Positions 4,413 to 51,601 of a stretch of 51,601 bases of DNA are shown piece by piece; the stretch's first letter is position 1, and each line of letters begins with the position of its first letter. The stretch is taken from positions 1 to 51,601 of IMG/VR virus record IMGVR_UViG_3300032265_000046. One strand, 5' to 3'. The notes beneath the pieces were generated by a model. It was not told where the DNA came from, searched no databases, and saw nothing but the letters and a program-made list of their open reading frames with translations. The position numbers were made by a program, and so were the translations under genes. The DNA comes from a virus. Lineage: Duplodnaviria; Caudoviricetes.

Positions 4413-4414
4413 AG

Positions 4415-6494: not shown

Positions 6495-6529
6495 GACCCG
6501 TATTCCCTTCGGTTTGATTGATTGTCGCC

Positions 6530-6559
6530 AGTGTATCAAACCTTTATGGTTTTCGCCAA
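6530..6559 (-). promoter_or_regulatory. Putative sigma70-type promoter for terS/late genes
   Basis: TTGGCG-18 bp-TACACT with extended -10 TG; the same TGATACACT occurs at 14299-14307. Confidence 0.4.
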
Positions 6560-6816
6560 TAGGTTGTTGGTGGATGTTTGGGTTTCAGGCTTACAACACA
6601 AGTCCCGCACATGGCAGTTCCCCGTTACATCGGGTGGCCTTACCTCCACCAACACGGCTGGGGACTGTTACCGATCTTTCACGGAGCCGTAAACAGCATT
6701 TACAACAGTCCTCATGCGTGATGGCTCCGAGTCGCCCTCCCTCGGATGCTTTGTCCCGAATTCCACGGGCTTGGCCTACTTCACCTATATAAAGATTACA
6801 GACCTCCGAAAACCAT
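6546..6816 (-). ncRNA. Candidate multibranched structured RNA (strand inferred from flanking genes)
   Basis: Nested inverted repeats: 6546-55/6807-16 (10 bp), 6559-64/6783-88, 6565-74/6645-54 (10 bp), 6659-69/6704-14, 6726-31/6741-46, 6755-58/6766-69. Confidence 0.6.
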
Positions 6817-6826
6817 TGTGAAACCA

Positions 6827-7045
6827 TTAAGGTTTCTTAACTCCTTCACACAAGTCCCCGACGTAGGCTTTTGGCTTTTGCTGAACACATTCCTGCTCAG
6901 TCAAATTAAAGTCTGGAACCCACGCCAAAAGAAACACAACCAACAAAACCATTATAGCAATTCCAACCTTTTCAAACAAGGTTTCTTCTGGTATTTGCTG
7001 GCTCGGGAGATGACTCATCATCTCGTCTATTTCCTGCTTGTTCAT
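6827..7045 (-). CDS. Small membrane hypothetical protein
   Basis: 72 aa, one hydrophobic helix, ATGA overlap with the upstream gene. Confidence 0.7.
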   Translation of the reverse strand: MNKQEIDEMMSHLPSQQIPEETLFEKVGIAIMVLLVVFLLAWVPDFNLTEQECVQQKPKAYVGDLCEGVKKP

Positions 7046-7245
7046 GCCTCTTCCTCCTCTGGTACTGGGACGTTATCAACGACGCACTGCAATGCGTGAA
7101 TCATCTGACGTGCCTGCTCAAAAGTCAAGGTGACGTGAGCACCACCACCCTTTACATGAATAGACAACCAGACCTCGTCGTCGTGCTTATCAGTAAATAC
7201 CACCTCACCTCTTTCGGTGGTTTCAATTCTGGTTTGGAAATTCAT
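7042..7245 (-). CDS. Hypothetical protein
   Basis: 67 aa, AAGGA SD, packed in operon. Confidence 0.7.
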   Translation of the reverse strand: MNFQTRIETTERGEVVFTDKHDDEVWLSIHVKGGGAHVTLTFEQARQMIHALQCVVDNVPVPEEEEA

Positions 7246-7246
7246 T

Positions 7247-7462
7247 TCAATATCCTTTCACTGAACGCGGAAGGTTTTCAAACCAATCATCGTGATGGTC
7301 TTGCCATGCGTTTTCAGCATCACTACGGTTAGGAAAATTTATTTCCTCAACTTGAGTTTGGGTATGGTAGAAACCAAAACCATTAGCATTCTCAAATATC
7401 TCACCCAAAACTTTGCCGTAAATGGATTTGATTTCATTAATTACTGTTGCATTCGATTTCAT
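7247..7462 (-). CDS. Hypothetical protein
   Basis: 71 aa, GAAGGA SD within the shared leader motif. Confidence 0.7.
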   Translation of the reverse strand: MKSNATVINEIKSIYGKVLGEIFENANGFGFYHTQTQVEEINFPNRSDAENAWQDHHDDWFENLPRSVKGY

Positions 7463-7485
7463 TTCACTATTCCTTCGCTGTTAGT

Positions 7486-7501
7486 GGGGGGCGAACCCCC
7501 C
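7486..7501 (-). other. GC hairpin (G6-UUCG-C6) without U tract
   Basis: Perfect 6-bp stem between two early genes. Confidence 0.5.
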
Positions 7502-7507
7502 GTTGGT

Positions 7508-7777
7508 TTACGCCAGTTGCGCCCTTACTTCTTTGATGTCTTCACCCGAAGCCAGCCTGCCGTTGGCGGCAATGCTGTATTCGATCTGCTCAATTGTTGG
7601 CTTGTAGCAGTCACCGTAATCAGTCCACTGACCACACTGACGGTCACCTTCAAACCAAATAAGGTAGATGTTGAAACCACTTATTTCCGCTATCGTGTAC
7701 ACCTGAGCGTCTTTGTGTTCACCACGGACAATCAGTTGACCAACACGGAGTTGTTTAAGAGTAAGACGTTTTGCCAT
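7508..7777 (-). CDS. Hypothetical early protein
   Basis: ATG 7777 preceded by the cassette SD; 89 aa. Confidence 0.75.
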   Translation of the reverse strand: MAKRLTLKQLRVGQLIVRGEHKDAQVYTIAEISGFNIYLIWFEGDRQCGQWTDYGDCYKPTIEQIEYSIAANGRLASGEDIKEVRAQLA

Positions 7778-7896
7778 ATTCACTTTCCTTCACTGTTACT
7801 GACTATGCGGTATTGCTGTGTCAGTGATACTAGTATAACACCAACTTAAACGATGTCAACAACTTTATCAATTTATTTTCTAGGTACTTTCCCTAG
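7778..7896 (-). promoter_or_regulatory. Promoter-leader cassette copy 1
   Basis: TAGGGAAAGTACCTAG box; TTGACA (7854-59)-16 bp-TATACT (7832-37); ACTGAC/GTCAGT hairpin; ACAGTGAAGGAAAGTGAATATG. Confidence 0.85.
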
Positions 7897-7900
7897 TATT

Positions 7901-7926
7901 GGGAGAGGGGCTTTCGCCCCCCCTGC
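7901..7926 (-). terminator. GC-rich GAAA-loop hairpin after gene stop (possible terminator or stabiliser)
   Basis: GGGGC-GAAA-GCCCC immediately after the stop at 7928; no clear U tract. Confidence 0.4.
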
Positions 7927-7927
7927 T

Positions 7928-8542
7928 TTAGACCTTCTCCATCTTTCTCCAAGCGGTGGAGCCAATCCAACTCTTCCAAACTTTCTCTTCTCTCTGGGCT
8001 TTGAAGTAAACCCGTGCGCCGTCTAATTGGGTGGCTACATAGATTGCATCGTGTGCGGTTCTTTTCTCGCCAATTTCGATTTGTACTGGGGCTGTCTTGG
8101 TAACTGTGACCAAAGGCTTGCCGTGGTACTCGTCAGCGATTTCACCAAGTGTTTTGATAAATGATTCGCCGGCACGCGCCTTCATTTTTAATTCCCACTC
8201 TAATTGTTGACGGGCTTGGCGCTGGTCATAGGAGTTTGCTTCGACGTAAGGAATAGTGACTCTTTTGCTGTGGCGACCAGTAATCACAAACTGTGGCAAT
8301 AACTTGCCCATGATTACCTGCTCTGCCTGTTTCAACAACTCTGGAATCTCCGCCTTGATGTCAGCAATGATTTTGTCAGTCTCTGCGCGGCTTACTTGGA
8401 TCGGGGCGTGGCGCTCGCCAGAACACACACCGTTGAACCAACCGTGCTCTACGGTGTAACCATGTTTTGCCATCATTCCGTTTTTGACAGCCTGCTGGCG
8501 ACCGCAACACTGGCAATTACCTCTGATTTGATTTGTTTCCAT
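7928..8542 (-). CDS. Hypothetical early protein with N-terminal Cys/His (Zn-binding-like) motif
   Basis: CQCCGR...KHGY...GVCSG; ATG 8542 with cassette SD. Confidence 0.75.
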   Translation of the reverse strand: METNQIRGNCQCCGRQQAVKNGMMAKHGYTVEHGWFNGVCSGERHAPIQVSRAETDKIIADIKAEIPELLKQAEQVIMGKLLPQFVITGRHSKRVTIPYVEANSYDQRQARQQLEWELKMKARAGESFIKTLGEIADEYHGKPLVTVTKTAPVQIEIGEKRTAHDAIYVATQLDGARVYFKAQREEKVWKSWIGSTAWRKMEKV

Positions 8543-8648
8543 ATTCACTGTTCCTTCACTGTTTACAACTGCACTATTGCTGTTGTTGGTTTAAGTATAT
8601 CTTAAACGAACAGCCTGTCAACAATTATTTTCTAGGTAGTTTCCCTAA
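8543..8648 (-). promoter_or_regulatory. Promoter-leader cassette copy 2
   Basis: TAGGGAAACTACCTAG box; TTGACA (8616-21)-16 bp-TATACT (8594-99); GTTTAAG-N5-CTTAAAC palindrome; ACAGTGAAGGAACAGTGAATATG. Confidence 0.85.
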
Positions 8649-9114
8649 GTGCCAAAAGTTTTTCAATCAACTTGTCTTCGCGCCATTCATTAGCCCACTT
8701 ACGATGTTTTTCAGCCTCTTCCTTTTGCTTACGTTGCTCTATTGGGCATCGGTCAATGAAGGGATACAGTCGATCACTACGAGATGGGTGTCTTAATTTA
8801 CGGAGCGCTCTAGCCTCAATCTGGCGTACTCGCTCTTTGGACACTCGAAAGAAGACCCCAACATCGTGAAGGGTGCGGTCGTCCCAAAATCGAAACCAAA
8901 GGCAAGCCTTTTCTTTATCGGTCAGTTGTTCCAAAGTTTTTGGAATCAAGCGTTCTAAATCAATTTTGTTGTCAATGTCATCGGACTCTAAAGCCATCCA
9001 CGGTGGAAGGCGCTTAAACACCTCCTGCTCTGGCTCTTCATGGCGACTACGCCAGAGTTTGCCTACCTCTGGGTGAAAGTCTGCCAGCCGGCCTTCAGGG
9101 GTTATCCTGCGCAT
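8632..9114 (-). CDS. Stand-alone sigma70 region 4-like HTH protein
   Basis: RTLHDVGVFFRVSKERVRQIEARALRKLRHPSRSDRL closely matches RpoD region 4.2; no region 2 present. Confidence 0.85.
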   Translation of the reverse strand: MRRITPEGRLADFHPEVGKLWRSRHEEPEQEVFKRLPPWMALESDDIDNKIDLERLIPKTLEQLTDKEKACLWFRFWDDRTLHDVGVFFRVSKERVRQIEARALRKLRHPSRSDRLYPFIDRCPIEQRKQKEEAEKHRKWANEWREDKLIEKLLALRETT

Positions 9115-16569: not shown

Positions 16570-18399
16570 TTATTCTTCTTGGCGCTCGCGTTTAGCCGCC
16601 AAAATACCACCAAGTTGTGACAAGCCACCGCGCACAGGTTCTGCTACCGCACGCATTTGCGCTGGTCTTTCTGTAGCCAATGCAGTCAAGCCACGCATTG
16701 CAGGTTTGTTGTACATAGCGCCCGCGGCAACTAACGGAGCACCGCTTGTAAGAAAATGTCCGCCAGCCTCCGCCGCGCCAAATCCAAGCATCTTTCCCAA
16801 TGCCGCTGGAGTTAGCAAACGAGCCGCTGTACCGCTATCTGGCAGTCCTTTACCCATAACGGAGACCGCCGCCTGAGACTCAGGCACTGACATACCTATA
16901 CCTCTTGCAGTTGCACGACGACCAGCCATAGACTCAGCCGCGGAACGCATTTGGTTGGCAGAAAATACAGCCTCATCTGCGCCACGCAAAGCCGCCGCTT
17001 TTTCTACGCGAAGATAATTTTTAAACGCCTCGTGCGCCTCTCTAAGTTCTTTGCCCACTTGTGGGTTTTGTTTGGTCAATTCATTGCGTAAGGCTTCTTG
17101 GAACTCACGCAGGGCAAAACCTTGACTGCGCTGTATTGGGTCTGCGCTTGAAATATATGTCTTAGCCATCTCGCCCAAACTCATTTCGGCTATACGAAAT
17201 TGTTTTCCATCAAGCGAGTATCTTTCCAAGAGTGGCTCAAAGAATGTTTTCTTTAGAGCGTCATCTACTTTTTGAGCGGCTTCTGGGACGAGATTTTTTG
17301 TTATGTTGACACTCGAATCCATCATTCGATTGATAGTTGTCGAATTTGTCTTAGGGTCAATAAAGTTACCAAAAGAGATTTTTGGCTCTAAACTTTTATA
17401 CGCACCATTTATTTTTGAATACAAATGGTTGATCATGTCCTGACCAGCAGAGACACTTTTTGGCAAAGTCTCGTGCAAAGGTTTTAGTACCTGATTACCC
17501 ATAGCGCGGTTGAAGTCTTCGGTTGCTATGCGTTGTCCGTGTCCAATGATTGAACCAAGTAATGGAGCGCTTGTCAGTGCCTCTTCCGCTTTTTGAATCA
17601 TGCCTCCAACCACTGGGATTTGCCCCGCGAGTTGACCGGGCGTGAAGTGCTTCATCCCCAACTCTTGCAACATCTTCATTTCATCAGATACTTTGGGATT
17701 AAAAATCATTTGACCAGCCTTGCCCAATGCACCCCCAAGCACAGTGCCAAAACCAACCTGCTCGGCTTTCTTAGCCAAAAAATCTGCATAGTCTTCTGTG
17801 TCTGATGTTGGCGTAAAAGCCGCAGAACCTGCTCCTTGTGCGGCAGACTTAGCCAATACAGATTTATCTAAGACAGAACCTATTTTTGATGTGGCTCCAC
17901 GAATCTGCGGAACAAATTTTGGAATCTTGCCTGCCAATTCAAACATCTTCATAGGCGCAGGACTGGCAACTTGACCCACAATATCAGCAACTTCGGCTGG
18001 CGTTCCACCAACTTGTGCGCCCATGTTAGTAACTTTTTCTAGAGTTTCAGCAGGTTTGTTGATGCCTAGAAACTGAGCCGCACCAGCAAATGGCTTAAGC
18101 ATTCCAGCCGATCCGCTCATCAACGTAGCACCCATGCGTTGACCCATACCATAATCCATAGGAACCCCGCTAACAGGGTCATAAACTGTGTCTGGGTTTG
18201 CGTAGGGGTTTGGTGGCGCAACCTTTTGCGGAGGCTCTTGAACAAGTGGTTTTACAGGCTCTGCTGGGGCTTGTTTCTTTATGGAAGAGTAGTGCTCCTC
18301 CGCCGCTTGTTGGAGGTCAGCCTCAGTCGCCCCCGATGGGCCTTGAATCCTAAGTATCGTGCCGTCTGGGGCTTGTATTTTATAAATTACATCAGACAT
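16570..18399 (-). CDS. Putative internal virion/DNA ejection protein
   Basis: 609 aa, Ala/Gly/Gln-rich; last gene of the tail module; N-terminal YKIQAPDG...IQGP.GAT. Confidence 0.6.
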   Translation of the reverse strand: MSDVIYKIQAPDGTILRIQGPSGATEADLQQAAEEHYSSIKKQAPAEPVKPLVQEPPQKVAPPNPYANPDTVYDPVSGVPMDYGMGQRMGATLMSGSAGMLKPFAGAAQFLGINKPAETLEKVTNMGAQVGGTPAEVADIVGQVASPAPMKMFELAGKIPKFVPQIRGATSKIGSVLDKSVLAKSAAQGAGSAAFTPTSDTEDYADFLAKKAEQVGFGTVLGGALGKAGQMIFNPKVSDEMKMLQELGMKHFTPGQLAGQIPVVGGMIQKAEEALTSAPLLGSIIGHGQRIATEDFNRAMGNQVLKPLHETLPKSVSAGQDMINHLYSKINGAYKSLEPKISFGNFIDPKTNSTTINRMMDSSVNITKNLVPEAAQKVDDALKKTFFEPLLERYSLDGKQFRIAEMSLGEMAKTYISSADPIQRSQGFALREFQEALRNELTKQNPQVGKELREAHEAFKNYLRVEKAAALRGADEAVFSANQMRSAAESMAGRRATARGIGMSVPESQAAVSVMGKGLPDSGTAARLLTPAALGKMLGFGAAEAGGHFLTSGAPLVAAGAMYNKPAMRGLTALATERPAQMRAVAEPVRGGLSQLGGILAAKRERQEE

Positions 18400-19946
18400 T
18401 ACGGAGCCTTTGCTGGTTCAGTACCTACAACTTTAAATTTAGATTTGCCACTAGACGATGGCGACGCTGGCTCCTCATCAAATACGGGCGGACGACCTTC
18501 AGCAATATCTTTTGCGCGTTGTTGAGCACGCAACATAAACTTGTTAATTTCAACAAGCGAGTTATCAAAGGATTTTTTGGACATCCCGGGATTGAGTTTT
18601 GCAATTGCATCCGTGATCTTGTCGCCTTCTTTGTTAGATAGCGCACCCAACCCCCTCATTGATTGGACGTTAGCCAAGAATGTTTGGGACTTGAGTTTTT
18701 CCATTTCATTCATAAAGTCAAAAGAATTTGTGCCGCGGACTAATTGCGCTGGATTGTATGTAGTCAATCCGTTCATGCGACCGGGGTGGTTCTTAATTAA
18801 ATTAACTTGATTGATCACATCCTGAGCAGTATCGAAAGCCTGTTTTTGGGTTTGTTGTGCAAGATTTTTCTTAGTCTCTTGGGCTTGTTGCTGATCAAAC
18901 AAACGCTGTTGCGCTAAAGATTGGTTGACAGATGACACCGCCGCCGCCTGCGCCAATGCTGACTGACGATCCATATGCGAGGTCATCATGGTTAACATTT
19001 GATTTGCTAACTTGTCGGCATCTTCTTCTTTTATTAATCCTGACTTGTATCTCTGTGCGGCGAGTACCGCTTGTTGTCGAATGGCTGGGTCTTGAGCCAT
19101 CATTGCTAATGCATCAAATGGCGTTCCTTCGGTTGAACGGTCACCAAGCAGACCTGCCTTGCGCATCTCTGGAATAGCCTTGATAAACTCCAGCGCGTCT
19201 TTAGGCCCCGCCAAGCGGAAAATATCCCGCACTGCGGTTGGGTTTACTTGGTAAGAAGTAATAGGCTCTTCACCTTCTTTAGTGGGAGTTTTAACCTGCG
19301 TAAACATATTTCGATACGCAGTCTCTATGTTTGACTTTTTTTGTTGCTCTACTATTTGTGCAACATATTTTGGGTCACCAGACAACTGCGTTAAGCGTTG
19401 CGCCGCATTAGGATCAAACACAAAAGTTTCTTCGCCATAAGGGTCTTTAACTTTTTTATAAAGAGAAGATGACGCGCTTTCTAACAAACGACGTTTGCGC
19501 TCTTCTTGAACCGCTTTTTGCAATTCAACTTGCTTACCCATCAATTCGCTTTGACCAGTCAACTCATCTTGCGATGCCCTGTTGTAGGCTGATGCGCCCT
19601 GACCAAGCGACTCAAAAAAGTTTCCTGTCTTAGTCGGTTGCGCCATGCCTATGCCTAATGCCAACAATTTAGGGTCATAGTTCAGACCTTGATTGGGTTG
19701 CATACGCTTTGTCAAAGCCTCTTGCATCTTTTGAATTTGTGTATCCAAAACATTTTGACCCTGACGGTATTTGTTCATCTCTGCGTCAACATCAAATCCA
19801 CCCTTGTTGGATAGATTTTCAGACGCAATTTGATCCGCCTGCGATGCCTGATCTATTTTTGGCGCAGGCTGTGCAGGCTGATTAGATTGATTAGGCGGTG
19901 GCGCTTGAGCGACTTGATTTAAACCACCCTGTTGTTGTTCATTCAT
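18399..19946 (-). CDS. Putative internal virion/ejection protein
   Basis: 515 aa, Gln-rich coiled coils; C-terminal GLGALSNKEG segment reminiscent of P22-type ejection proteins. Confidence 0.6.
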   Translation of the reverse strand: MNEQQQGGLNQVAQAPPPNQSNQPAQPAPKIDQASQADQIASENLSNKGGFDVDAEMNKYRQGQNVLDTQIQKMQEALTKRMQPNQGLNYDPKLLALGIGMAQPTKTGNFFESLGQGASAYNRASQDELTGQSELMGKQVELQKAVQEERKRRLLESASSSLYKKVKDPYGEETFVFDPNAAQRLTQLSGDPKYVAQIVEQQKKSNIETAYRNMFTQVKTPTKEGEEPITSYQVNPTAVRDIFRLAGPKDALEFIKAIPEMRKAGLLGDRSTEGTPFDALAMMAQDPAIRQQAVLAAQRYKSGLIKEEDADKLANQMLTMMTSHMDRQSALAQAAAVSSVNQSLAQQRLFDQQQAQETKKNLAQQTQKQAFDTAQDVINQVNLIKNHPGRMNGLTTYNPAQLVRGTNSFDFMNEMEKLKSQTFLANVQSMRGLGALSNKEGDKITDAIAKLNPGMSKKSFDNSLVEINKFMLRAQQRAKDIAEGRPPVFDEEPASPSSSGKSKFKVVGTEPAKAP

Positions 19947-23451: not shown

Positions 23452-26097
23452 TTATACCAACCTCGTTTGGTTGCCTAAAGTTGTTGTCAGTTTCGCCGTA
23501 AGCGGATTAGTTATTGGTGTTTTCACCAAATTTAAACTTGGGTTTTTTGTTTGAGTTATTGGTATTAATTTATCTGTATTTACTTGCGCAAGTGGATTGC
23601 CAACTTTTGAATCTGAAATTTGTGTAGCAGTATTTTGTCTTGCAGAATTTATAGCATTCAAAACACTCTTGTTATCTGTAACAAAGTTTTTAACATCAGC
23701 AAGTTGATTTAATCCGCCAGTTGGTTTTGTTGTATCTTCAGTTTGAATGTCTTCACCTGATAGCGAAGCAGTTTTTGTTGTTGGGCTAATCGAAGATACT
23801 GCATTATTCACAATACTTTTTAGTGTTGCGGTAGCACTTGGTACATTCGTATCAATTGCAGTGGCAAGTTCCATACCCGCCGAAGTAACCGCTGATTGAT
23901 TGCCAGAGTTATATGCTTGGACAAGTTTGGTTGCGGCACCCGCCAGTTTTAAATCAGGACTGTTTACCAAGTTTCCAGAAACCTGTAACAAACCGCTTAG
24001 ATCATTTTTTGCAATTGCATTAGCCGCAGACAACGTACTCATAGCCAGTGATACGGTTGGCATATTTTCAGTGTTTGCTACATTTGCGCCCATTGCTATC
24101 AATGGCGTGAAATTTCCCTTATCCGCCGCTTGCACTGCGCTGATTGCCGATGCCGCCAACTTTGCTGTTGAAATATTTGATGCCGCCTGCACCGCTGGAT
24201 TAAATCCTTTAGTTGCTATATCACTGGATAAGTCCAAACCGCTTACAGAATTCAAACCATTTACGGATTGCATACCAGCAATATCTGCACCCTGCAACCC
24301 TGTATAGCCTGATATCCCGCTCATAACCGTGCCAAGGTTAAATTTGCCTTGGCCTAAATCGGTTGCAACATCGACTAAAGATAATTCGGGTTCAATTATT
24401 TTGGCAACTGTCCAAAGAGGGCCGAGGTCTTTTAACCCACCCGCTATATCACTAGCAAGGTTTTTAAAAAAACCACCACCGCTTGTTGCTACTTGGGCAG
24501 GCTTTGCATTGCCTTGTGCATCCCAATGCCCATATACATAATGACCACCATCTAACCAAGTAACGACACGAGGATCGCCTTGGTAATCATATGCTTTTCC
24601 GTTTTGATCATACGAAACAGTTACAGGAATGCCATTGACGTAGGTCGGTTTGTTTGAAACATAGTTTCCACTGTCCGCATCTAGTGTGACGTCAGCATTT
24701 TTTATTTGGGGTCGTGGTGTATATGTATATGGATTTCCATTTTCATCGTATGACGTGATTGGCGCAGATGGCGTAAATTCCAACTGTGTTGGTATACCAG
24801 CCTTTTTTATGTCTATAGGCGTAAACAATTGAACTTGATAGTCTTGAATTTTTCCACCAAAGTTTTCATTGGCTGTGTATTGCGCCATGTTTGCTATTTG
24901 GTTATACGCCGTAGGGCTTATAAGTTCAATTTGCCCCTGAAAAGTACCTGCTTTATCAATAGCAGATTGTGCTTGTGCTTGCGTAAAAGCGCCATTAGAA
25001 GCATCTGCTATTTGCTGTGCAGTAAAACCATTATTTTTTGCAAAAGTTGCTAATGCATATGGGTTATTTAAATTTGCAGATACCGTATTTTTAAGGATGG
25101 CATCTTGCGAACCCAATATTGTTTTTACAGAAGCAACACCTAATCCCGTAGCAGAAGCAATTTGTTCTGGTGTGAAGTTGTACTTGTCTTGATAAGCCTT
25201 GATGCCTTTGGCTTCATCCAGAGAAATATTACTGTCTGCTAATACAGCAGAAAGATTTTGCTTGATTGTGTCTGTTTGTTGTTTTAATTGATAATTTTGA
25301 ACATACTGCGTGTAGGCATCATTTGGGTTTGCCTTTTCATATGCAGAAACAGAATTTTGAAATATATTTTTAAAGTCTTGCGGAGAAATTTTTCCAGCGT
25401 TTAATTCACCTTTCCAATAATCAACTTCTGATTGTTTAACTTCATTTGTTTTTCCACCAACTCCAGTACGTCCAATGTCACTATAAGCGTCATTAATTAG
25501 TTTGTTGTAAATGGTATCTGTGTCAGTCAGGCGCCCTTCGTTTATCCCGTAGGTGCTGTAATGCAGTTTGGCAAAATCATCCGCACTTAACCCGCCAGAA
25601 GATGTTTTGTATGCCTCGGCTACATCTGGGTTAGCCGCAAGATAAGCATTGCCACTGAACCCCGTTGGTATTTGTTGCGCTTGATAATTGTTAACGTACT
25701 GTGTGTAGGGGTCGTTTGGATTTGCCGCTTTGAATGAATTGACAGCGGCGTTAAATGCAGATTGAAAGTTATTTGGATTTAAAGCCCCAGATGTAATTTG
25801 GTTAGCCCAATATTCTTTTTCGCCCGGCGTAAGAGCGCCTAATCCAACGCCAGTATCTGATCTGCCAGTGCCAGCGTATGCCTTTGAAATTAAATTATTA
25901 ATATCTGTTGTAGATGGCGTATCAATGGGAAGTTCTCCTCCTCCTCCTCCTCGTCCAGAAGAACTGCTTGATTCATTTGGAGGTGGTGGCGGTGCAAGTG
26001 GTTGTAATCCATTTTGAGCGGCGGCAATAAGTTCATCCGTAGTTGCATTTGGATTTGCGGCTTGCATTGCGGCTACTTGGTCTTCTGTTATTGCCAT
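23452..26097 (-). CDS. Large virion-region protein with internal duplications
   Basis: 881 aa; two copies of Y...GR...E..YW...G....F...ANPND.YTQYV.NYQ; AYLAANPDVA...HY..YG..EGR segment. Confidence 0.65.
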   Translation of the reverse strand: MAITEDQVAAMQAANPNATTDELIAAAQNGLQPLAPPPPPNESSSSSGRGGGGGELPIDTPSTTDINNLISKAYAGTGRSDTGVGLGALTPGEKEYWANQITSGALNPNNFQSAFNAAVNSFKAANPNDPYTQYVNNYQAQQIPTGFSGNAYLAANPDVAEAYKTSSGGLSADDFAKLHYSTYGINEGRLTDTDTIYNKLINDAYSDIGRTGVGGKTNEVKQSEVDYWKGELNAGKISPQDFKNIFQNSVSAYEKANPNDAYTQYVQNYQLKQQTDTIKQNLSAVLADSNISLDEAKGIKAYQDKYNFTPEQIASATGLGVASVKTILGSQDAILKNTVSANLNNPYALATFAKNNGFTAQQIADASNGAFTQAQAQSAIDKAGTFQGQIELISPTAYNQIANMAQYTANENFGGKIQDYQVQLFTPIDIKKAGIPTQLEFTPSAPITSYDENGNPYTYTPRPQIKNADVTLDADSGNYVSNKPTYVNGIPVTVSYDQNGKAYDYQGDPRVVTWLDGGHYVYGHWDAQGNAKPAQVATSGGGFFKNLASDIAGGLKDLGPLWTVAKIIEPELSLVDVATDLGQGKFNLGTVMSGISGYTGLQGADIAGMQSVNGLNSVSGLDLSSDIATKGFNPAVQAASNISTAKLAASAISAVQAADKGNFTPLIAMGANVANTENMPTVSLAMSTLSAANAIAKNDLSGLLQVSGNLVNSPDLKLAGAATKLVQAYNSGNQSAVTSAGMELATAIDTNVPSATATLKSIVNNAVSSISPTTKTASLSGEDIQTEDTTKPTGGLNQLADVKNFVTDNKSVLNAINSARQNTATQISDSKVGNPLAQVNTDKLIPITQTKNPSLNLVKTPITNPLTAKLTTTLGNQTRLV

Positions 26098-40484: not shown

Positions 40485-40862
40485 TTATGTACTCGTATTG
40501 TCTGGAGGGTTCGGAGCAATTGTGTCTTTGTTTCCAGTGCTTGTAGGAGTCTGAGTGTTCTGCTCCGTAGAAATTTGGAATTGGCTCGAACCATCAAGGT
40601 TTTGACTACCTGTCATCAAGAAGTTGTCATTTGCGGCAACGCTGACATCAGGACGTGGGAATCTAAGATTAATGCGCTCAGTCTTTCTAGCGGGAAGTCG
40701 ATAAGGATCAAGTTGGTCTTTACACCCACGCTCCGCACAGACCCGTAAGCCGGGCGCGTTGGAGTCCGCCACCAATGTCACAAAAGGCACTTTCATCTTG
40801 CACCTATCGCATACCGCAATGGCAACCGATGTCAAACCCATTGTGTCAAGAAAGACTGGCAT
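40485..40862 (-). CDS. Virion-region protein with CxxC motifs
   Basis: IAVCDRC...GLRVC...C.D..DPYRLP. Confidence 0.7.
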   Translation of the reverse strand: MPVFLDTMGLTSVAIAVCDRCKMKVPFVTLVADSNAPGLRVCAERGCKDQLDPYRLPARKTERINLRFPRPDVSVAANDNFLMTGSQNLDGSSQFQISTEQNTQTPTSTGNKDTIAPNPPDNTST

Positions 40863-41935
40863 TATCTTGTGTACACCGAAATGTTAGGGGCAAGGTAGAT
40901 TGGCGACTTATCGCGCTCTTCTGCCTCGGCCTCAGAGTAGAAACGGTCAGCCATCTTCTCAAGGTATAAAGTTCGATCCGATGCTACTTGCGGTAATTCA
41001 AGGCTCATACGGTGAGCCAGCATAAACACAACAGCCTCATACCAGCGTTGTGGGACTTCTAATTCGTCAGTAAGCGCACCAACGTCCATGATCTGGCGCT
41101 GATACCACACCGTCATTTGAATGAACGGATCGCTTGGCGTAGGCCACAAATAAACCGTAGCCTGTGGGATTGTTCGGTCAAACCAAAATTGATAGGGCTG
41201 ATTGGCTGTGAAATTCTTGTTTGGCAGATTGGTGTAGTCGTCACGGTTCAAGCGAGCCATTTGAATCTCGCGGCTGTTATTACCAAAGTACAACTCACGC
41301 AAAGCCAATGTTGTGCCGTTATATGCACGAATGCGGTAGTAGGCGACAGACTCGCCGGGGTCGATGTCAGTCCACACCCACTCATTGTTAGAAACCGCAA
41401 TGGTTCCTAAATCTTGCAACATATTCCATGTTGAATTGTCAGTGGAGTATTCCAGAGCAATTGACCAAGTGGCTGATCCATTACCCGCCACATAGGGTAA
41501 AAAGCCAATAGAGCCAATATAAATGGGGTTGCTAGAGCCAAAATTGACCGCAATATTGCCGTTTGTTGACGTTTGCTGGCAATAAGTATTGACATCGCCG
41601 TCATACACATTTGCCACCACACCGCCTGCTGAGGTGGTATATGCGCCGTTTGGACGGTTTATTGTGCGGTAAAGCACGTTCAAAACGTCAATACAGCCCA
41701 ATGGCATAGAGTAAATGTACTGATCTGCGTTAAGACCAAAGACTTTTTTGCTGATTGCCCAATAATTTATGCCAATGTTGGCAAGATGGGACAGCAAAAA
41801 GAAAAGTGATTGACGAGAAGAAAGAACCTGCTCAGAGGTTAATTCTTCGGCTAACTTTCCACACCGACGTGCGCCGTGGTCTATCAGCGTTTGGACGTTG
41901 ATAACGGTTGTGCCGACGGTTCCTGAGTAAGCCAT
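40862..41935 (-). CDS. Head completion/adaptor-like protein with inserted beta-sandwich
   Basis: RRCG...L...Q....RQSL..LL..LAN.GIN.W N-terminus; LWPTP...Y..QIMDVG C-terminus; central DGD..T...LEYSTDN.TW...YYRIR. Confidence 0.55.
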   Translation of the reverse strand: MAYSGTVGTTVINVQTLIDHGARRCGKLAEELTSEQVLSSRQSLFFLLSHLANIGINYWAISKKVFGLNADQYIYSMPLGCIDVLNVLYRTINRPNGAYTTSAGGVVANVYDGDVNTYCQQTSTNGNIAVNFGSSNPIYIGSIGFLPYVAGNGSATWSIALEYSTDNSTWNMLQDLGTIAVSNNEWVWTDIDPGESVAYYRIRAYNGTTLALRELYFGNNSREIQMARLNRDDYTNLPNKNFTANQPYQFWFDRTIPQATVYLWPTPSDPFIQMTVWYQRQIMDVGALTDELEVPQRWYEAVVFMLAHRMSLELPQVASDRTLYLEKMADRFYSEAEAEERDKSPIYLAPNISVYTR

Positions 41936-42942: not shown

Positions 42943-44307
42943 TCAACAAGCGCGTCCGCCGCGTTTCTTTCCTGCTGGCGTAACAGTTACAGACTTTTCA
43001 GTCTGCGTTACAGCACCCGGTGCTTTGTTCGCACGATCTGCCCTTATCTTGTCAGCCATGTATCTACGAGACTCGCCCTCAAACAACTTCTTGCGCTCAT
43101 CGCCCTTGAAGTAACCCTCTGGGTCAAAAGAACGCATAACGTGTTGTCCAAGACTCTTGAGCGGGTCAAGAATCATGTTGCGCATTGACTCGTTTTCTGC
43201 CCTTTCATTGGCATAGTGAGCGTCATACGCGCCATTAGACATATCTTCCATAGGCTGTCCGCCAGATGCCATACGCTTTGGTGAACCATATTTCAGGTTG
43301 CTATCCTTTTTGGCATCTCGCATAGACATAGCATTTTCTGAGGCGTTGTATTTCAACAAACGTGCTTCCGCAGGAGTTGCTCGCCCACCCTTTTTGTAAG
43401 TACCAGCCAGTTGGCTAATCTTTACAGATGAGGGAACGGGCTTATTGCCTTGCGGCATTGCGACGGCGCGACCTGAATCAACAGTTCCCCCCGTCGCGTA
43501 GGCTTTTTTTGAGGTTTTGCCCCCCATTTTGAAACCACCAGCATTACCGTTACGCACACCGCCTGTTACGGCTCTTGAGCGATCTGGTTTTGCCTGATGC
43601 ATCAGCGTAGTGTCATATGAGCCACTTGTAGTCTCTGAAGGAATAGAGCCTCCAGTTGCATAACCGCCAGCATTGGACTTAGCCACGCCACCAGTTGCAT
43701 ACTTAGTTTTTCCACCCTTTTTGAAGCCACCAGCATTCCCGTTCTTTACATCGCCAGTCTTGGCTTTGGAATGATCGGGTTTTGCTTGATGCATCTTGGT
43801 TGTTGGGTAGTTATCCCAACTTTCCTCAGAAGGAATTGAACCGCCAGTAGCGAACTTTTTCATTCCGCCCTTTTTCAGTTTTAATTCCGTTCCTTTGCCA
43901 CCTTTATGCTCTTGCATATCGTGTTGCTTGAACGCCTTCTTGATCATGGCCTTGTCTTGCGCCATATCAGATTTACCGCCCTCCATCATCATCTTGCCGC
44001 CTTTTCTCATCATAGGCATAGCCATTGGGGGGCCTGACGGCGTGACAGCAGGCTTTGCCATCATCGCTTTACGACGCATAGCCATTGAGGGCTTCATAGG
44101 GGTGCGCACAGGAGCGTTAACAGCAGGACGACCCAACAAAGCAGGTGTTCCAGCCATCATGTCCATAGCGCCACCACCCATAGCCATCTTCTTGGCTTTA
44201 GTGGTGCTACCGCCTTTTTTCATTTTGACTGCACCACCTTTTTTGAGTTTTAACTCAACGGTTGGTTCTGTGGTCTCCATCTTGACCATTGGTTTAAATT
44301 GACCCAT
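42943..44307 (-). CDS. Basic K/G/M-rich internal-protein candidate with 14 or more GG motifs
   Basis: 454 aa; repeated LKKGG/MKKGG/FATGG/YATGG; internal ~50-aa duplication; AAGGAG SD. Confidence 0.8.
   Translation of the reverse strand: MGQFKPMVKMETTEPTVELKLKKGGAVKMKKGGSTTKAKKMAMGGGAMDMMAGTPALLGRPAVNAPVRTPMKPSMAMRRKAMMAKPAVTPSGPPMAMPMMRKGGKMMMEGGKSDMAQDKAMIKKAFKQHDMQEHKGGKGTELKLKKGGMKKFATGGSIPSEESWDNYPTTKMHQAKPDHSKAKTGDVKNGNAGGFKKGGKTKYATGGVAKSNAGGYATGGSIPSETTSGSYDTTLMHQAKPDRSRAVTGGVRNGNAGGFKMGGKTSKKAYATGGTVDSGRAVAMPQGNKPVPSSVKISQLAGTYKKGGRATPAEARLLKYNASENAMSMRDAKKDSNLKYGSPKRMASGGQPMEDMSNGAYDAHYANERAENESMRNMILDPLKSLGQHVMRSFDPEGYFKGDERKKLFEGESRRYMADKIRADRANKAPGAVTQTEKSVTVTPAGKKRGGRAC
43460..43525 (-). 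promoter_or_regulatory. Candidate -1 programmed ribosomal frameshift signal
   Basis: G6 run, 9 nt, in-frame A AAA AAA (43510-43504), 5-6 nt, then GC stem (43491-97/43460-66 or 43493-98/43467-72). Confidence 0.5.
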
Positions 44308-45364: not shown

Positions 45365-46279
45365 TTACACGCCGGGTGTGCCGTAAACGGCGCGTGGATC
45401 AGTAAAGCCCACTTGATAACGCTCAGTAGCCTTGTAGCGCATAGAGTCGGTCTCAAAATCACCTTCCATAGTTTTTTCGAGTTTGCGACGCATTAGCAAC
45501 TTCATGCCTTCTGGTGCATCAGTCTGTACCCAGAACGCTGTAGCGCTGGTTAAACGTGACAACACTGCCGCGCCTTCGTCCAATAGACCGATAGACTTAA
45601 CAGGGTTGATGTCGTTGTTACCAGTACCAGAGCGGAGAACAGACTTCAACAACACTTCGGCTTGGAAGACGTTGCTCGGAGCCACAATCAATTGACGTGG
45701 AACCAAACGAATCTTCTTACCGTTGTTGTCTACTGCTTGGCGAATCTGAATCAACATCTGCTCAAGCGATGTTTGGCTCAGGTTTGCGGCTGTGGTCAAC
45801 AAGTTGCTGAAAGTACCATTCACGATTGGGTGAGCGTTGGAGTTCAATTGAACGCCATCACCACCGGGGTACGCACTGTTAAACGCGCGGTTCAACACGT
45901 TTGCCGCCAAAGTCTCTTTGGTCTCAATCAAAGACTGAGCCAAGTGACGAGCGTAAACCTGACCGATACGGATATGGTCGCCATCTTCAACCAAAACTTT
46001 GGTCAACGCGAAGGCCAAGCCATACACGTTATACACATAGCGTTGCAAGAAGAGTACGCCACCTTGCTGATAGGACACTGGTGTTCCGTCAGGCAATTGA
46101 GGCGCGGCTCCAAATCCATAAAGGACTGGTTCTTCGTGGTAGTTACGGGGAATACCTTCTTGCTCACGGAAAACCCGTGACCATTCATCGGTACGTTGGT
46201 CATAGACTCCATCGAAGCATTCATTGAGGATAGGTTCAACGATGCTTCTAAAGTCCGTACTTCGCATTGGTGCGGCCAT
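45365..46279 (-). CDS. Major capsid protein (Mu gpT-like family, HK97 fold inferred)
   Basis: 304 aa; GFGAAP...G....Y, TKET.AANVLNRAF...GGDG..L...HP, GDFET.SMRYKATERY..GFTDPR..YG; strong SD and own terminator. Confidence 0.85.
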   Translation of the reverse strand: MAAPMRSTDFRSIVEPILNECFDGVYDQRTDEWSRVFREQEGIPRNYHEEPVLYGFGAAPQLPDGTPVSYQQGGVLFLQRYVYNVYGLAFALTKVLVEDGDHIRIGQVYARHLAQSLIETKETLAANVLNRAFNSAYPGGDGVQLNSNAHPIVNGTFSNLLTTAANLSQTSLEQMLIQIRQAVDNNGKKIRLVPRQLIVAPSNVFQAEVLLKSVLRSGTGNNDINPVKSIGLLDEGAAVLSRLTSATAFWVQTDAPEGMKLLMRRKLEKTMEGDFETDSMRYKATERYQVGFTDPRAVYGTPGV

Positions 46280-47439: not shown

Positions 47440-48434
47440 CTCCTATTACCGTTGTTTTGACGTGCTTCTTTAGCATAACGAGCGACCATTCGCGCTCTCT
47501 TCTCGGGATCGTCCCACATACCCGCATCTTTCATAGCCCTAACCTGATCTGGGTTTAGGGTAAAGGTATTTCTACCACCACTACTCGACACTGCTTCGCG
47601 TCCCGAACTCGTCACAACATTACGGGGTCTCCGTTGAGTTGGTTTCTCATTCGCGTTATCAGTATAACGGTGTGGTAGGTACTTTTGCAAGCGATTGTCA
47701 AGTTCTTCCCAAAATTCTGCTGTTTGGGGTGAATAACCATCTTCTGCAAGAGCCGCGTCTATGGTTAAAGCAATCTTGGAATCAGAATCTTTGCCTCTAG
47801 GGTCATACCAAGAATTGTTTGACATCCATTGGTTAGCAAAATTCTGCACCGCAGGATCAGGCGCTTGAATTGTGGGTTGTGGGCGTTGTGAAGTGGCTTT
47901 TTTCTTGATATTCTCAAGAGCCTCTGCATTTCTACGCGCATCAAACCACATTTCCTGAGCATTCGTAGCCAAAGCACCGTTTCCAGTGGCAGTAGCCTCT
48001 TCCATTTTGGATTTAGCAAACTGAATCTTGGAATACTCGTTCTCAATTGCCTTATTTATTCGGGCAACCTCAGAACCGTGCGTCTTTTTCTCCAAAACTG
48101 CCATGCGCTCAAGCAATTCTTGGTTTTGGCGCTCCAAATGATTGATTTTTACGCTTTTCTCTTGCTCGACATTGCGGTGATACTCTTTGCGGGAGCGTCT
48201 TTTTTGACGTTTTGCCTCACGCATCGCTTCTGCATCAGCATCTACCTCACCACCAGATGCCATTTCTGCACGTCTGGCTCGATCATCAGCCTCGTCAGAG
48301 TCTTCGTGCTCTGAGTCTGCTTGTACGTCAGGGGATGGAATACTTTCTGGCAATTCAATCGTTGCGGAACCGTCCACCTCCTCTTGAATTGTGATTACTT
48401 CTGGCTTTTCAGCCGTAATTTGTTCGGTACTCAT
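47436..48434 (-). CDS. Putative scaffolding protein
   Basis: Acidic N-terminus, long coiled coil, W...N.WY, position in the head module. Confidence 0.65.
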   Translation of the reverse strand: MSTEQITAEKPEVITIQEEVDGSATIELPESIPSPDVQADSEHEDSDEADDRARRAEMASGGEVDADAEAMREAKRQKRRSRKEYHRNVEQEKSVKINHLERQNQELLERMAVLEKKTHGSEVARINKAIENEYSKIQFAKSKMEEATATGNGALATNAQEMWFDARRNAEALENIKKKATSQRPQPTIQAPDPAVQNFANQWMSNNSWYDPRGKDSDSKIALTIDAALAEDGYSPQTAEFWEELDNRLQKYLPHRYTDNANEKPTQRRPRNVVTSSGREAVSSSGGRNTFTLNPDQVRAMKDAGMWDDPEKRARMVARYAKEARQNNGNRS

Positions 48435-48853
48435 ATGAATGCCCTCACTTCAAGCGGATTACCTGTTACTTTAGCAATAACTTCGTGGTCATTCATAATC
48501 ATAAACTCCACTTGTTCGTCATCTCCGTGCTTGACAGTCCAGCGGTCGCCAGTCCATCGTGGTACGCGAAGAAAATCGCCTATTTCACACCAACTGCCCT
48601 CAACCCAAGGCTCCATTGAATCGCGCTTCTTGAACGCGAGGGGGCCAATCGCCACGACTCGACCAATTGGGTTTTGCGCCCGCTCGGTGTCTCGTGTTTC
48701 TTCAGGCAGGATAATTCCCGATTCGGTCATTCTTTTTTTGGCTATTCTCATTTGTACAAGTACACGAGCGCCTAATGGAATCGCACCGGGGTCTACAAGA
48801 GGAAACGACTCCTCTATATCAGCGGCATTACCCGCTACCGTGCTGTTACTCAT
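48431..48853 (-). CDS. groES: Phage-encoded GroES-like co-chaperonin
   Basis: PLGARVLV, TESGIILP mobile loop, GRVVAIGP, GD.., IMND.EVIA. Confidence 0.9.
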   Translation of the reverse strand: MSNSTVAGNAADIEESFPLVDPGAIPLGARVLVQMRIAKKRMTESGIILPEETRDTERAQNPIGRVVAIGPLAFKKRDSMEPWVEGSWCEIGDFLRVPRWTGDRWTVKHGDDEQVEFMIMNDHEVIAKVTGNPLEVRAFI

Positions 48854-49208: not shown

Positions 49209-51601
49209 TCATTCTCCTAAGTTGCGTTGCGTGGTTTGTTGCAGTTTCACAGCAGTCTGCTCCTGCTCTCTTTGCAGTTTTGCCTCTTCGACCGTTAGGT
49301 CTGCCGTCATCATCCGTTCTTTCGTAAGGTTGTTTTCGGCATTCATAGCAATACGAGTTTGCAAATCTTTGTTTTCGCGCTCCATACGCGCTTGCATTTC
49401 CTGCATCTTGATCTGATTGGTCGCTTGGTCTTGCGCCGCTCTTCTTTGCGTTTCCGCCATAGAAGCCTGCAACACAGCCTGAGCCTCGCCATCCATAGGC
49501 GGTGCCGGCGGCTTGAACTGTTGCATGACCTGACCCAATTGTTGGAGGGCGGGCATAACACCTTTGAAAACCTCAGCGGTATCCAACTTAACGTGGTCTG
49601 AAGCAATAGCCATAGCCTTGTCAATCTCTGGGGCTAGTTTGCTATCTTCATATTTGCCAAGTTTGAAGTTGGTTCCCGCAGTCACATATCCATTCATCTG
49701 ACCTGTATACCAAAGCATCATGTGTTGCTTAATGTGCTCTAGCGCCTGCGGTATGAACTTGGGCGCAATCAGGTTGTTTGATCCTAGCGTTGGGTCTAAG
49801 CCAAAGGTAAGGTGAGTTTGAATGTGCGCAAGATGGTCTTGGTTGGGATACGCAAAGGCAGACTTACCCAAAGACATCGCCGCGTTCTCATCCGCCGCGT
49901 TGAGTTCCGTAGGCTTGGATGCGTTGGGCAACAACTCCTGAATGTCAGGAATCTTTAACTGCTTGAGCATTCGACTCAGTACCGCCTTTTGGTCAAACAA
50001 CCCCGGGTTCGCAGACGACATCTGCAACACCGCCTGCATCTGAGCCATACGCTGGGTCTCAGAGAAGATGTGCGGGTCAGACACAGGGACAATGTCGCTG
50101 TTCTTTTTAAAGTCGTCACGGCTGATTGGCAATTCGGCAACGTCATCGCCCTTGCGCATATCGTCCAAGTACCAACGGTTGATGCGACCTAGCACGCCAA
50201 GCACTCGGCGCTGACTGTCATGCAATCGAGCGTGAATGGCGGAGAACACCGCGGCTCCCTGCTCAATCAATGCCTGCGTGGTTCCTACTGGGGTGTTGGC
50301 AGATGCGTCGCCAATCTTTTCCTCAGCGGTGGTGACCACGCCTTTGGCGGCGGTTGTCAGCCAACCAAGCAAAGAAAATAGCACTGGGCTGGGCGCGTTG
50401 AACGGCATGGGCATGGCAATAGAGCGGATGTCGTTCACGCCGGGGCCTGCCTCAATCTCCGTTACCTGCGTCACCTCAATGCTTTGCGATTGACCAGAAA
50501 CCTTTGCCCCCTTCAACTTCAGCATCGTTGCCGAGTTGTTGATGTGAGCGGTGTCCAACAAGGCACGCAGAGCGCCCGTCAGGGCGGCTGTTAAGCCTCC
50601 GATGAGTTGGGGTAGCCCGATAGCGTATGCGCCCCTCCAAGGGATAAATTTAAACTCAATGAGCCAATCTAACTTGGTCATCGTGTCGTCGCCCTCTTCC
50701 CAATTGCGGTACAGACCAAGCACTTTGTGCTCAAGGTCATCCAACATTAGGATGTAAGGAGCGAGTGCGCCCTTGGTTACAGGATCGTCTTCAAGTTCCA
50801 ACCATGTGTAAACGTGGTAGACCTTGCGCAGACCATCCTCGTTGTCACTCCAAGATTTACCTTCGATTTTGTCGTTGGCTTTCTCAGATGCCGTTTGCTC
50901 TGGTTCAGAAGTCGCACGGATAAAATCAATGTCACGGTACAAGCCAGCGTCAATACGGCGCTTAAACTCCATACCTGTGATGTCTTGCATCTCAGTTACG
51001 CGCTGGGCAGTGTAGAAGTTCACCGCGGCGTAGGGAAGCATTACGTTGTCAATAGGAACAAACTCAGCGCAGGGGCGCTTCTTTTGCTCGTCGTACCAGA
51101 GTTTCATGTACTGTGAGCCACCCAAAGGTAGTTGGGTAAGCAACTGCTCCTGCTCGTCGCGGAACTCTTCAATCTGCTCAGTCAACTGCCAGTTTGTCCA
51201 ATCACGCTTACGCTCGGCACGCTCGGTCTTCTCCTCAGAGGCTTCGCCCATGATTTTGGTGCGGACGGGGCCGTCTGGTGGAAACAATTCTTTAATAGCA
51301 CGAGCGGCAAAGTCCACGCAGGCTTCAGCCATAACAGGATGGACAACCTTGGATGCGCCTTGGAACTGAGCACCGCCGGGGCTGTCATTCCCCAAGCCCG
51401 TGCGCTTCAATCCCTCTTCGTACTGCTTGTCGCGGTTCTTTCGTGCTTCCTTGTCCTTCTCGATCAAGTCGATATAACGCATACCAACTTTATCTAGGTC
51501 GTATAGGTTTACCGCCTCTTCTGCTAGGTTCTCGTAGAAGTCTGCGTCTTCCTCGGGGCCTTTGTCCTCGCCCAAGCGAACAATTGCTGAACCATCTTCT
51601 A
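49209..51601 (-). CDS. Portal protein (main part; starts at 334 across the junction)
   Basis: F.GAS.VVHP.MAEACVDF.ARA.KELFP..GPV; LPLGGS..MK..YD; GL..LIGGL; PVGTT.ALIEQG; Gln-rich barrel-like C-terminus. Confidence 0.85.
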   Translation of the reverse strand, partial: EDGSAIVRLGEDKGPEEDADFYENLAEEAVNLYDLDKVGMRYIDLIEKDKEARKNRDKQYEEGLKRTGLGNDSPGGAQFQGASKVVHPVMAEACVDFAARAIKELFPPDGPVRTKIMGEASEEKTERAERKRDWTNWQLTEQIEEFRDEQEQLLTQLPLGGSQYMKLWYDEQKKRPCAEFVPIDNVMLPYAAVNFYTAQRVTEMQDITGMEFKRRIDAGLYRDIDFIRATSEPEQTASEKANDKIEGKSWSDNEDGLRKVYHVYTWLELEDDPVTKGALAPYILMLDDLEHKVLGLYRNWEEGDDTMTKLDWLIEFKFIPWRGAYAIGLPQLIGGLTAALTGALRALLDTAHINNSATMLKLKGAKVSGQSQSIEVTQVTEIEAGPGVNDIRSIAMPMPFNAPSPVLFSLLGWLTTAAKGVVTTAEEKIGDASANTPVGTTQALIEQGAAVFSAIHARLHDSQRRVLGVLGRINRWYLDDMRKGDDVAELPISRDDFKKNSDIVPVSDPHIFSETQRMAQMQAVLQMSSANPGLFDQKAVLSRMLKQLKIPDIQELLPNASKPTELNAADENAAMSLGKSAFAYPNQDHLAHIQTHLTFGLDPTLGSNNLIAPKFIPQALEHIKQHMMLWYTGQMNGYVTAGTNFKLGKYEDSKLAPEIDKAMAIASDHVKLDTAEVFKGVMPALQQLGQVMQQFKPPAPPMDGEAQAVLQASMAETQRRAAQDQATNQIKMQEMQARMERENKDLQTRIAMNAENNLTKERMMTADLTVEEAKLQREQEQTAVKLQQTTQRNLGE
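51386..51601. repeat. Right copy of terminal overlap
   Basis: Matches 1-216 at 206/216 positions. Confidence 0.95.

Follow-up and report, generated by a model that had tools for sequence, protein, structure and literature searches.

A conserved candidate -1 frameshift site predicted to truncate a basic head-module protein in an unannotated family of phage proteins

The viral metagenome record IMGVR_UViG_3300032265_000046 (Caudoviricetes) was analysed over its full length of 51,601 nucleotides (nt), a stretch referred to here as the window. At 51.6 kb the record looks complete, and its minus strand encodes a podovirus-like structural module in which a gene for a basic protein of 454 amino acids (aa) is located between the capsid and adaptor genes. 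A preliminary description, made from the letters of the sequence alone, had proposed that a -1 frameshift inside this gene gives rise to a second, shorter form of the protein, and it is this site, together with its counterparts in homologous genes, that is the subject of the present analysis. The features at the locus are listed below, with Shine-Dalgarno abbreviated to SD.

42943-44307, minus strand: gene of the 454-aa basic protein, followed by genes for small proteins
43525-43520, minus strand: SD-like GGGGGG (codons GGG GGC, Gly-Gly), 9 nt upstream of the heptamer
43510-43504, minus strand: slippery heptamer A_AAA_AAA in the X_XXY_YYZ register (TCA AAA AAA; Lys267-Lys268)
43504-43478, minus strand: -1 tail AGC CTA CGC GAC GGG GGG AAC TGT plus TGA (SLRDGGNC-stop; TGA at 43480-43478)
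43460-43497, minus strand: stem-loop, with 5' arm GCGACGG at 43497-43491 and 3' arm CCGTCGC at 43466-43460
42943-42948, minus strand: last Cys codon of the zero frame with its stop (TGT TGA), identical to the six bases at the end of the -1 tail

The elements that had been proposed could all be located in the window. The first A of the heptamer is the third base of the TCA codon, at offset 797 of the gene, and as 797 mod 3 = 2 the heptamer is in register. The 9-nt spacer between GGGGGG and the heptamer reads CAAAACCTC, and on the other side the GC stem, claimed at 5-6 nt downstream, begins 6 nt after the heptamer in the minimum free energy (MFE) fold (after GCCTA) and 5 nt after it in the homologue consensus. 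The sequence also bears out the two C termini described previously: 268 residues followed by eight read in the -1 frame make up a short form of 276 aa, and the zero frame finishes KKRGGRAC-stop after 454 aa. In a single genome this pattern is weak, as in-frame slippery heptamers are not rare in this genome and -1 stops are dense, with a stop about every 15 codons in the -1 frame of this gene (30 in 454), and the significance of the site therefore rests on the comparison of homologues.

For this comparison 146 distinct homologous genes were available from viral contigs. A first scan returned 593 relatives; the 79 best-matching loci were retained and, with the window, gave 71 distinct genes of 42-91% identity. 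A search of 50,697 phage records had a sole match, MW202545 from an uncultured freshwater phage (32% identity), and its protein served as the seed for a second scan, which contributed another 80 loci and 75 distinct genes. Protein identity among the homologous loci is 37-91% overall, and the peptide patterns used in retrieval leave the synonymous choice at the heptamer free. Loci that share 42-91% identity in the basic protein share 89-98% in the capsid protein encoded next to it, so that the evolutionary rates of the two neighbouring genes are very different. At the DNA level, however, the capsid gene is only 82.5% identical on average, with a synonymous codon identity of 0.59, and the lineages have thus moved well apart at synonymous positions. 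The family as a whole comprises 5054 proteins at E <= 0.001 among 8000 candidates scored, is unannotated, and has so far been seen only in freshwater and other metagenomes. Relatives were found on contigs of four further public runs, including lake metagenomes and RNA libraries, as well as on contigs of metagenome-assembled genomes labelled Burkholderiaceae or Betaproteobacteria, Gammaproteobacteria, Porticoccaceae and Hyphomicrobium. Seven of the 13 loci from metagenome-assembled genomes carry the frameshift site; the other six comprise three that were not parsed by our script, one that is cut, one that is broken and one without the region.

One of the 146 genes (L151) is cut by the contig end ahead of the site. 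Among the 145 that reach it, 143 have an in-frame A_AAA_AAR at the homologous Lys-Lys, with seven A's in 77 genes and six A's followed by G in 66. A further gene (L122) has Gly-Lys at this position, encoded by G_GGA_AAA, which is another canonical slippery heptamer, and gives the same -1 tail (SLRHGG-stop). The codon ahead of Lys-Lys, which contributes the first base of the heptamer, is NNA in 143/143 genes across Ala, Ser, Thr, Leu, Pro and Val (GCA 60, TCA 51, ACA 17, TTA 7, CCA 5, CTA 2 and GTA 1), and the NNA share for those residues in the same genes is 13-21% of codons. Among the Lys-Lys dipeptides encoded in frame elsewhere in the 71 genes of the first scan, A_AAA_AAR is used in 9/634 cases and an A precedes the dipeptide in 29/634; slipperiness is avoided away from the site and retained at it. 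Synonymous variation is also suppressed around the site: of 339 windows of seven codons, the five with the highest synonymous codon identity (0.75-0.85, with 0.52 for the whole gene) all fall on it. Both the conservation of the seven-A or six-A-plus-G heptamer and this suppression had been anticipated for homologues in the preliminary description.

The SD-like element is conserved in a manner that depends on its distance from the heptamer. A Gly-Gly dipeptide is encoded three codons before Lys-Lys in 69 genes and two codons before it in 74. In the former group GGRGG (GGAGG or GGGGG, the first Gly codon being purine-ended) is present 9 nt upstream in 65/69 genes, whereas in the latter, where the spacing is one codon shorter, it is present at 6 nt in 5/74; the background use of GGR as the first Gly codon at other Gly-Gly dipeptides is 173/2561. 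Within the conserved group the element is itself varied, with both GGA and GGG used and all four second codons represented. The difference between the two spacings suggests that the SD-like element is selected only where it would be able to stimulate a -1 shift, and it lends support to the G run that had been pointed out 9 nt upstream in the window.

The stem in the window has an MFE of -29.4 kcal/mol, compared with -19.9 +/- 3.0 for shuffled sequences (z -3.1; 2/200 shuffles as good), and compensatory changes in homologues support its formation. In an alignment of 61 sequences of the common type, 60 of them distinct, the seven core pairs are formed in 60/60 distinct sequences. One of these pairs, which joins the third positions of an Ala codon and a Val codon, occurs as G-C in 40 sequences, C-G in 10, U-A in 9 and G-U in 1, and is never unpaired, and the pair adjacent to it alternates between A-U (40) and G-U (20). 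The covariation score was matched by 0/500 shuffles, and slid registers pair in 33-62% of cells versus 89%; as the U-A and C-G variants sit on different tail and heptamer backgrounds, the covariation does not reflect a single event. Among all 143 genes, the local hairpin falls within the lowest 5% of 45-nt windows of its own gene in 103, with a median of -22.8 kcal/mol against a gene mean of -9.5. Of the other 40 genes, 31 were aligned, and in these the partner of that 5' arm is a stretch located some 55 nt farther downstream; this long-range pairing covaries as well (GCC/GGC versus GCU/AGC). A scan of 43300-43700 against Rfam gave no match near threshold. The odd ACG GGG GGA codons of the window had been put down to the encoding of Gly-Gly in the -1 frame as well; the 5' arm of the stem, which they help to form, explains them at least as well.

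The -1 tail is short throughout, with 2 codons in 16 genes, 6 in 34, 8 in 89 and 9 in 4. In 143/143 tails the -1 stop is made by the third-position T of a zero-frame codon, GTT (95/95), GCT (14/14) or GGT (34/34), codons for which the background use is 33-41%, and the zero-frame residue after the stop-making codon varies (D, N, S, E or K). Just ahead of the stop a Cys is encoded in 102/143 tails, compared with 280/3758 (7.5%) at other -1-frame stops. This Cys (TGT or TGC) overlies T-ended Thr, Ser, Leu, Ala, Pro or Phe codons, and the positions of the stop and Cys codons are kept despite these changes in the zero-frame amino acids. Fourteen tails have an internal Cys, and 27/143 are without Cys and end ...HGG, ...HGR or ...HRG. 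In the zero frame, 112/142 complete genes are Cys-terminated, and 99 of those proteins have exactly one Cys. The window follows this pattern, as the sole Cys of the 454-aa form is its last residue and the 276-aa form likewise has a terminal Cys only. The proposal that both forms end in Gly-Gly and a terminal Cys, with a GGxC-stop conserved in the -1 frame, thus holds well in the clade of the window, in which 68/71 tails end in Cys-stop, but it does not extend to the whole family given the tails that lack Cys. Across the family no clear correlation was found between the zero-frame terminal Cys and the Cys of the -1 tail. The coding of the tail lies over the 5' arm and loop of the stem, and this overlap of a Cys-terminated tail with the presumed stimulatory stem is an extra feature of the site.

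Taken together, these data point to programmed -1 ribosomal frameshifting of the bacterial tandem-slippage type at this site, a reading to which we assign a probability of about 0.85. The comparison of homologues shows that the anatomy of the site is conserved under selection at synonymous positions, and from this we infer that ribosomes would shift here, that the two forms may be made in a set ratio, as proposed in the preliminary description, and what role the protein might have. In the proposed mechanism, ribosomes on the mRNA of the 454-aa protein would pause with two Lys-tRNAs on A_AAA_AAA. They would be stalled there by the GC-rich stem-loop, positioned at the mRNA entrance, and in the case of this genome also by the SD-like GGGGGG 9 nt upstream, which would pair with 16S rRNA. 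A fraction of the ribosomes would then slip back by one base, read the eight -1 codons (SLRDGGNC) and terminate.

In E. coli dnaX the SD-like stimulator lies about 10 nt upstream of the heptamer and the stem-loop about 6 nt downstream. The phage site resembles this tau/gamma system in its A_AAA_AAR tandem-slippage heptamer, its 5' SD-like stimulator and its 3' stem-loop, and also in that the shorter frameshift product is without C-terminal domains; the dnaX/IS3-type architecture claimed for the window is therefore present in all its parts, with a 3' stem that covaries. The two systems differ in that the protein and the setting are unrelated, the gene here belonging to a phage virion module, and in the tail, which is 1 codon in dnaX but 2-9 codons and usually Cys-ended in the phage family. 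They differ also in that half of the phage family is without the SD-like element and in that the 3' arm of some members is about 55 nt away. The dnaX frameshift is described in a review as a truncating one in which the shifted ribosome stops almost at once (PMC5009743), and the dnaX heptamer alone is reported to give 14-16% frameshifting in vitro (10.1101/2025.10.02.679949).

The run of seven A's, present in the window and in 77/143 homologues, raises the question of whether the RNA polymerase rather than the ribosome slips at this site. The addition of one A to the transcript would open the same downstream frame and lead to the same truncated form, with one extra Lys and no ribosomal shift. 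Productive bacterial slippage sites are usually runs of about 9, whereas the runs seen here are of 7 or 6 A's only, as 66/143 homologues have no more than the six of A_AAA_AAG and L122 has G_GGA_AAA. Transcriptional slippage would also leave the conserved register of the heptamer (NNA in 143/143) unexplained, and the stem 5-6 nt downstream and the SD-like element 9 nt upstream are stimulators that act on ribosomes. RNA-library contigs that bridge the A-run, one covering 43460-43610 with 0 gaps (X16 record 7) and one from a relative (X18 record 14), have no indel and hence no inserted A, which argues against slippage, if weakly, since contigs drop rare variants and DNA is possible in the libraries; these lake contigs show only that the bulk sequence is unedited. 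On balance we consider transcriptional slippage very unlikely. It might instead be argued that nothing here is programmed, the Lys-Lys being slippery by accident, the stem having some other use, such as stabilising the mRNA or slowing translation where the disordered part gives way to the helical domain, and the -1 stop close by doing no more than limiting the cost of occasional slips. A preprint reports that cryptic stops in other frames are selected for in the vicinity of efficient slippery sites (10.1101/2025.10.02.679949), and with -1 stops as dense as in this gene, chance alone would place one within 8 codons in about 40% of cases. Accidental slipperiness should, however, be selected against, as it is at the other Lys-Lys dipeptides (9/634), yet the wobble A ahead of this Lys-Lys has been kept in 143/143 genes through six amino-acid identities, the SD-like element is found only at the stimulatory spacing, and L122 has swapped its heptamer for another canonical one and not lost it. 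Nor would damage limitation explain the enrichment of Cys before the stop (102/143 versus 7.5%), and an accidental origin of the site seems very improbable to us. Chance, or an assembly artefact in one metagenomic contig, would be suggested by the metagenome-assembled nature of the record and by the weak statistics of a single genome, but can hardly be credited when 143 distinct genes, drawn from a large number of contigs and samples, have the same cassette, as do the contigs of the four further public runs, and when the loci, given the range of their protein identities, are not copies of one sequence.

Several points nevertheless weigh against a programmed frameshift or reduce the force of the counts in its favour. 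The support for the model is comparative sequence analysis throughout, and the counts are not independent events because the sequences are related, falling into 13 single-linkage clusters at 60% identity and 48 at 70%. The 60 putative genes of the window contain seven in-frame A_AAA_AAR heptamers, that is, six besides this one. About half of the family is without an SD-like element at a useful distance, and the long-range comparison covers 31 of the 40 genes that are without the local hairpin. The 5' arm was found to begin 4-7 nt after the heptamer in all genes by an 8-nt arm search that is permissive, in that chance 7-of-8 matches are allowed. One gene (L150) has lost the site (C_AAG_AAG), and its C-terminal domain is also absent. 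Finally, the cultured phages closest by capsid protein (77% identity), the Caulobacter phages RW, RLK, GB2A and KcrB, are without the 454-aa gene, which is therefore not required for this capsid type.

Other ways of reading the region were tried and rejected. An independent open reading frame in the -1 frame would extend upstream for just 13 codons and lacks a start codon, the stretch in the +1 frame (PTRRGELLIQ...) varies in length among homologues, and no zero-frame start codon for an internal start lies at SD distance from either G-run.

The 454-aa protein has an isoelectric point (pI) of 10.15 and is rich in Gly (13%), Lys (13%) and Met (8%). It has no Pfam family at E <= 0.01, no PHROG and no usable profile match in the PDB, and against the ESM Atlas only unnamed viral clusters were returned, at under 0.9. 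An AlphaFold2 model computed with 72 aligned sequences has a mean predicted local distance difference test score (pLDDT) of 52, with residues 1-300 devoid of predicted secondary structure save for short helices at 75-82 and 115-133, and with three long helices at 312-340, 360-394 and 403-427. The model is too uncertain for fold comparison, and it serves here only to divide the protein into a disordered and a helical part. On this division, the 276-aa form would consist of the disordered Gly/Lys/Met-rich part only, and the 454-aa form would add to it a linker and a helical C-terminal domain. A prediction of the complex between the capsid protein and residues 296-454 scored 0.00 and gave no answer, speaking neither for nor against binding. 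The label of internal protein used in the preliminary description is consistent with the position of the gene and with the composition of its product (the high pI and predicted disorder), and the likeness to the T4-type internal and polycationic head-module proteins is that of a basic, low-complexity product of a head-module gene, plausibly packed with the DNA; a frameshift is not known for those proteins. The first 25 residues (44233-44307; MGQFKPMVKM..EP..LKLKKGG) are almost invariant across the alignment of 72 sequences, unlike the remainder of the disordered part, which is fast-evolving, and they may form a targeting or binding peptide.

A closer parallel for the protein is found in CsoS2 of the alpha-carboxysomes, described as a basic, repetitive and disordered scaffold protein of the shell, of which a -1 frameshift yields a C-terminally truncated isoform (PMC5009743; for further background on CsoS2A and CsoS2B see PMC10484944 and PMC11365436). 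As in the CsoS2A/CsoS2B pair, a long, basic, repetitive and disordered protein would lie inside an icosahedral shell, a role that for the phage protein is drawn by analogy, and a -1 frameshift with a 3' stem-loop would give a short isoform in which a few -1 codons are read before the stop and the C-terminal region is absent. The phage protein is to be seen as an analogue and not as a member of the CsoS2 family, as there is no sequence relationship (no Pfam family at the above threshold) and the repeat motifs are other ones, with basic-x-Gly-Gly in the phage protein. Moreover, the shell would be a capsid here and the partner probably DNA, and binding of the shell by the C-terminal domain is a conjecture. 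By analogy, then, the site would work like that of E. coli dnaX in its anatomy and outcome, while the biology would most resemble that of CsoS2. We propose that the protein is capsid-associated, disordered and probably in contact with DNA, and that the long form would be tethered via its C-terminal domain, in the manner of CsoS2A/B or of DnaX gamma/tau.

A more tentative idea, which we hold to be possible but doubtful, is that the -1 tail re-encodes the type of C terminus found on the full-length protein (a basic stretch, Gly-Gly, a few residues and a terminal Cys, the sole one in either form), so that both isoforms would bear an equivalent anchor and the pair would form a phage counterpart of CsoS2. 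If so, each C terminus may anchor the protein, for example through a disulfide, through a metal or by targeting it to the capsid, and the two isoforms would be versions of one polycationic, disordered thread that arranges the DNA along the inner face of the capsid. In about 15 relatives, among them MW202545, another in-frame A_AAA_AAG is found 40-130 codons downstream of the main site, in the context KKF[AD].G and with a -1 tail of V-stop or VC-stop. They include L081 (MW202545; gene 3356-4705, codon 372), L085, L087, L089-L091 and L094-L096, with L098, L103, L104, L111 and L118 as further carriers. The window is without the second site, having the non-slippery TAC AAA AAG at the matching TYKKGG. 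The additional heptamer suggests three nested products in these relatives, which on the above idea would amount to three isoforms. The gene that has lost the first site (L150; gene 1501-2724) encodes a His-rich variant, with HH and HHH runs as well as Met, that ends about 50 residues past the position of the site; taken with the Met and Cys found in the family as a whole, these His runs hint at metal binding.

Frameshifts that set the ratio of two products with a shared N terminus are described for phage G/GT and for capsid extensions (lambda G/GT, T3/T7 gene 10, A2 and PSA; PMC5009743 and PMC10885494). The present site is similar in being a conserved, apparently programmed frameshift in a phage morphogenesis gene, but those frameshifts extend the product whereas this one would truncate it, and there is no homology. 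The tail assembly chaperone G/GT differs further in its position between the major tail and tape measure genes, compared with the capsid/adaptor position and the absence of a PHROG match here. A description of this frameshift was not found in the literature searched, to which subscription journals and supplements, including the gene-category table of PRFect, were external. A truncating frameshift like those of dnaX and CsoS2 would be a known mechanism, new for this unannotated protein family, and would place a conserved dnaX/CsoS2-style truncation in a phage morphogenesis gene, where the established cases extend their products. The family is large, with more than 590 viral-contig loci, and for annotation it matters that the 276-aa product escapes gene callers. 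It would also be a natural test set for trade-offs between stimulators, as it offers the heptamer with or without the SD-like element and with a near or far 3' arm. For an abundant, disordered and polycationic head-module protein, the site would provide a first functional clue, namely that only a fraction of the molecules would need the helical C-terminal domain.

The other genes of the structural module, and the terminase gene, are located as follows.

49209-51575, minus strand: portal gene
48431-48853, minus strand: gene of a GroES-like co-chaperonin, between the portal and head genes (PHROG 3188, E 5.6e-11)
45365-46279, minus strand: major capsid protein gene
Between the major capsid and 454-aa genes, minus strand: gene of a 321-aa protein
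40862-41935, minus strand: head-tail adaptor gene, followed by further virion and ejection-type genes
4415-5833: terminase gene

Elsewhere in the window, in-frame A_AAA_AAG heptamers at 19341 (gene 18399-19946, codon 203, minus strand) and at 24808 (gene 23452-26097, codon 431, minus strand) are followed by -1 tails of 14 and 19 codons, respectively; both genes are large and belong to the virion/ejection module. In the Caulobacter phage RLK (L175), the stretch that follows the capsid gene (6043-8767) has other genes where the window encodes the 321-aa and 454-aa proteins, and the first of these replacement genes encodes a Cys-rich protein of 516 aa.

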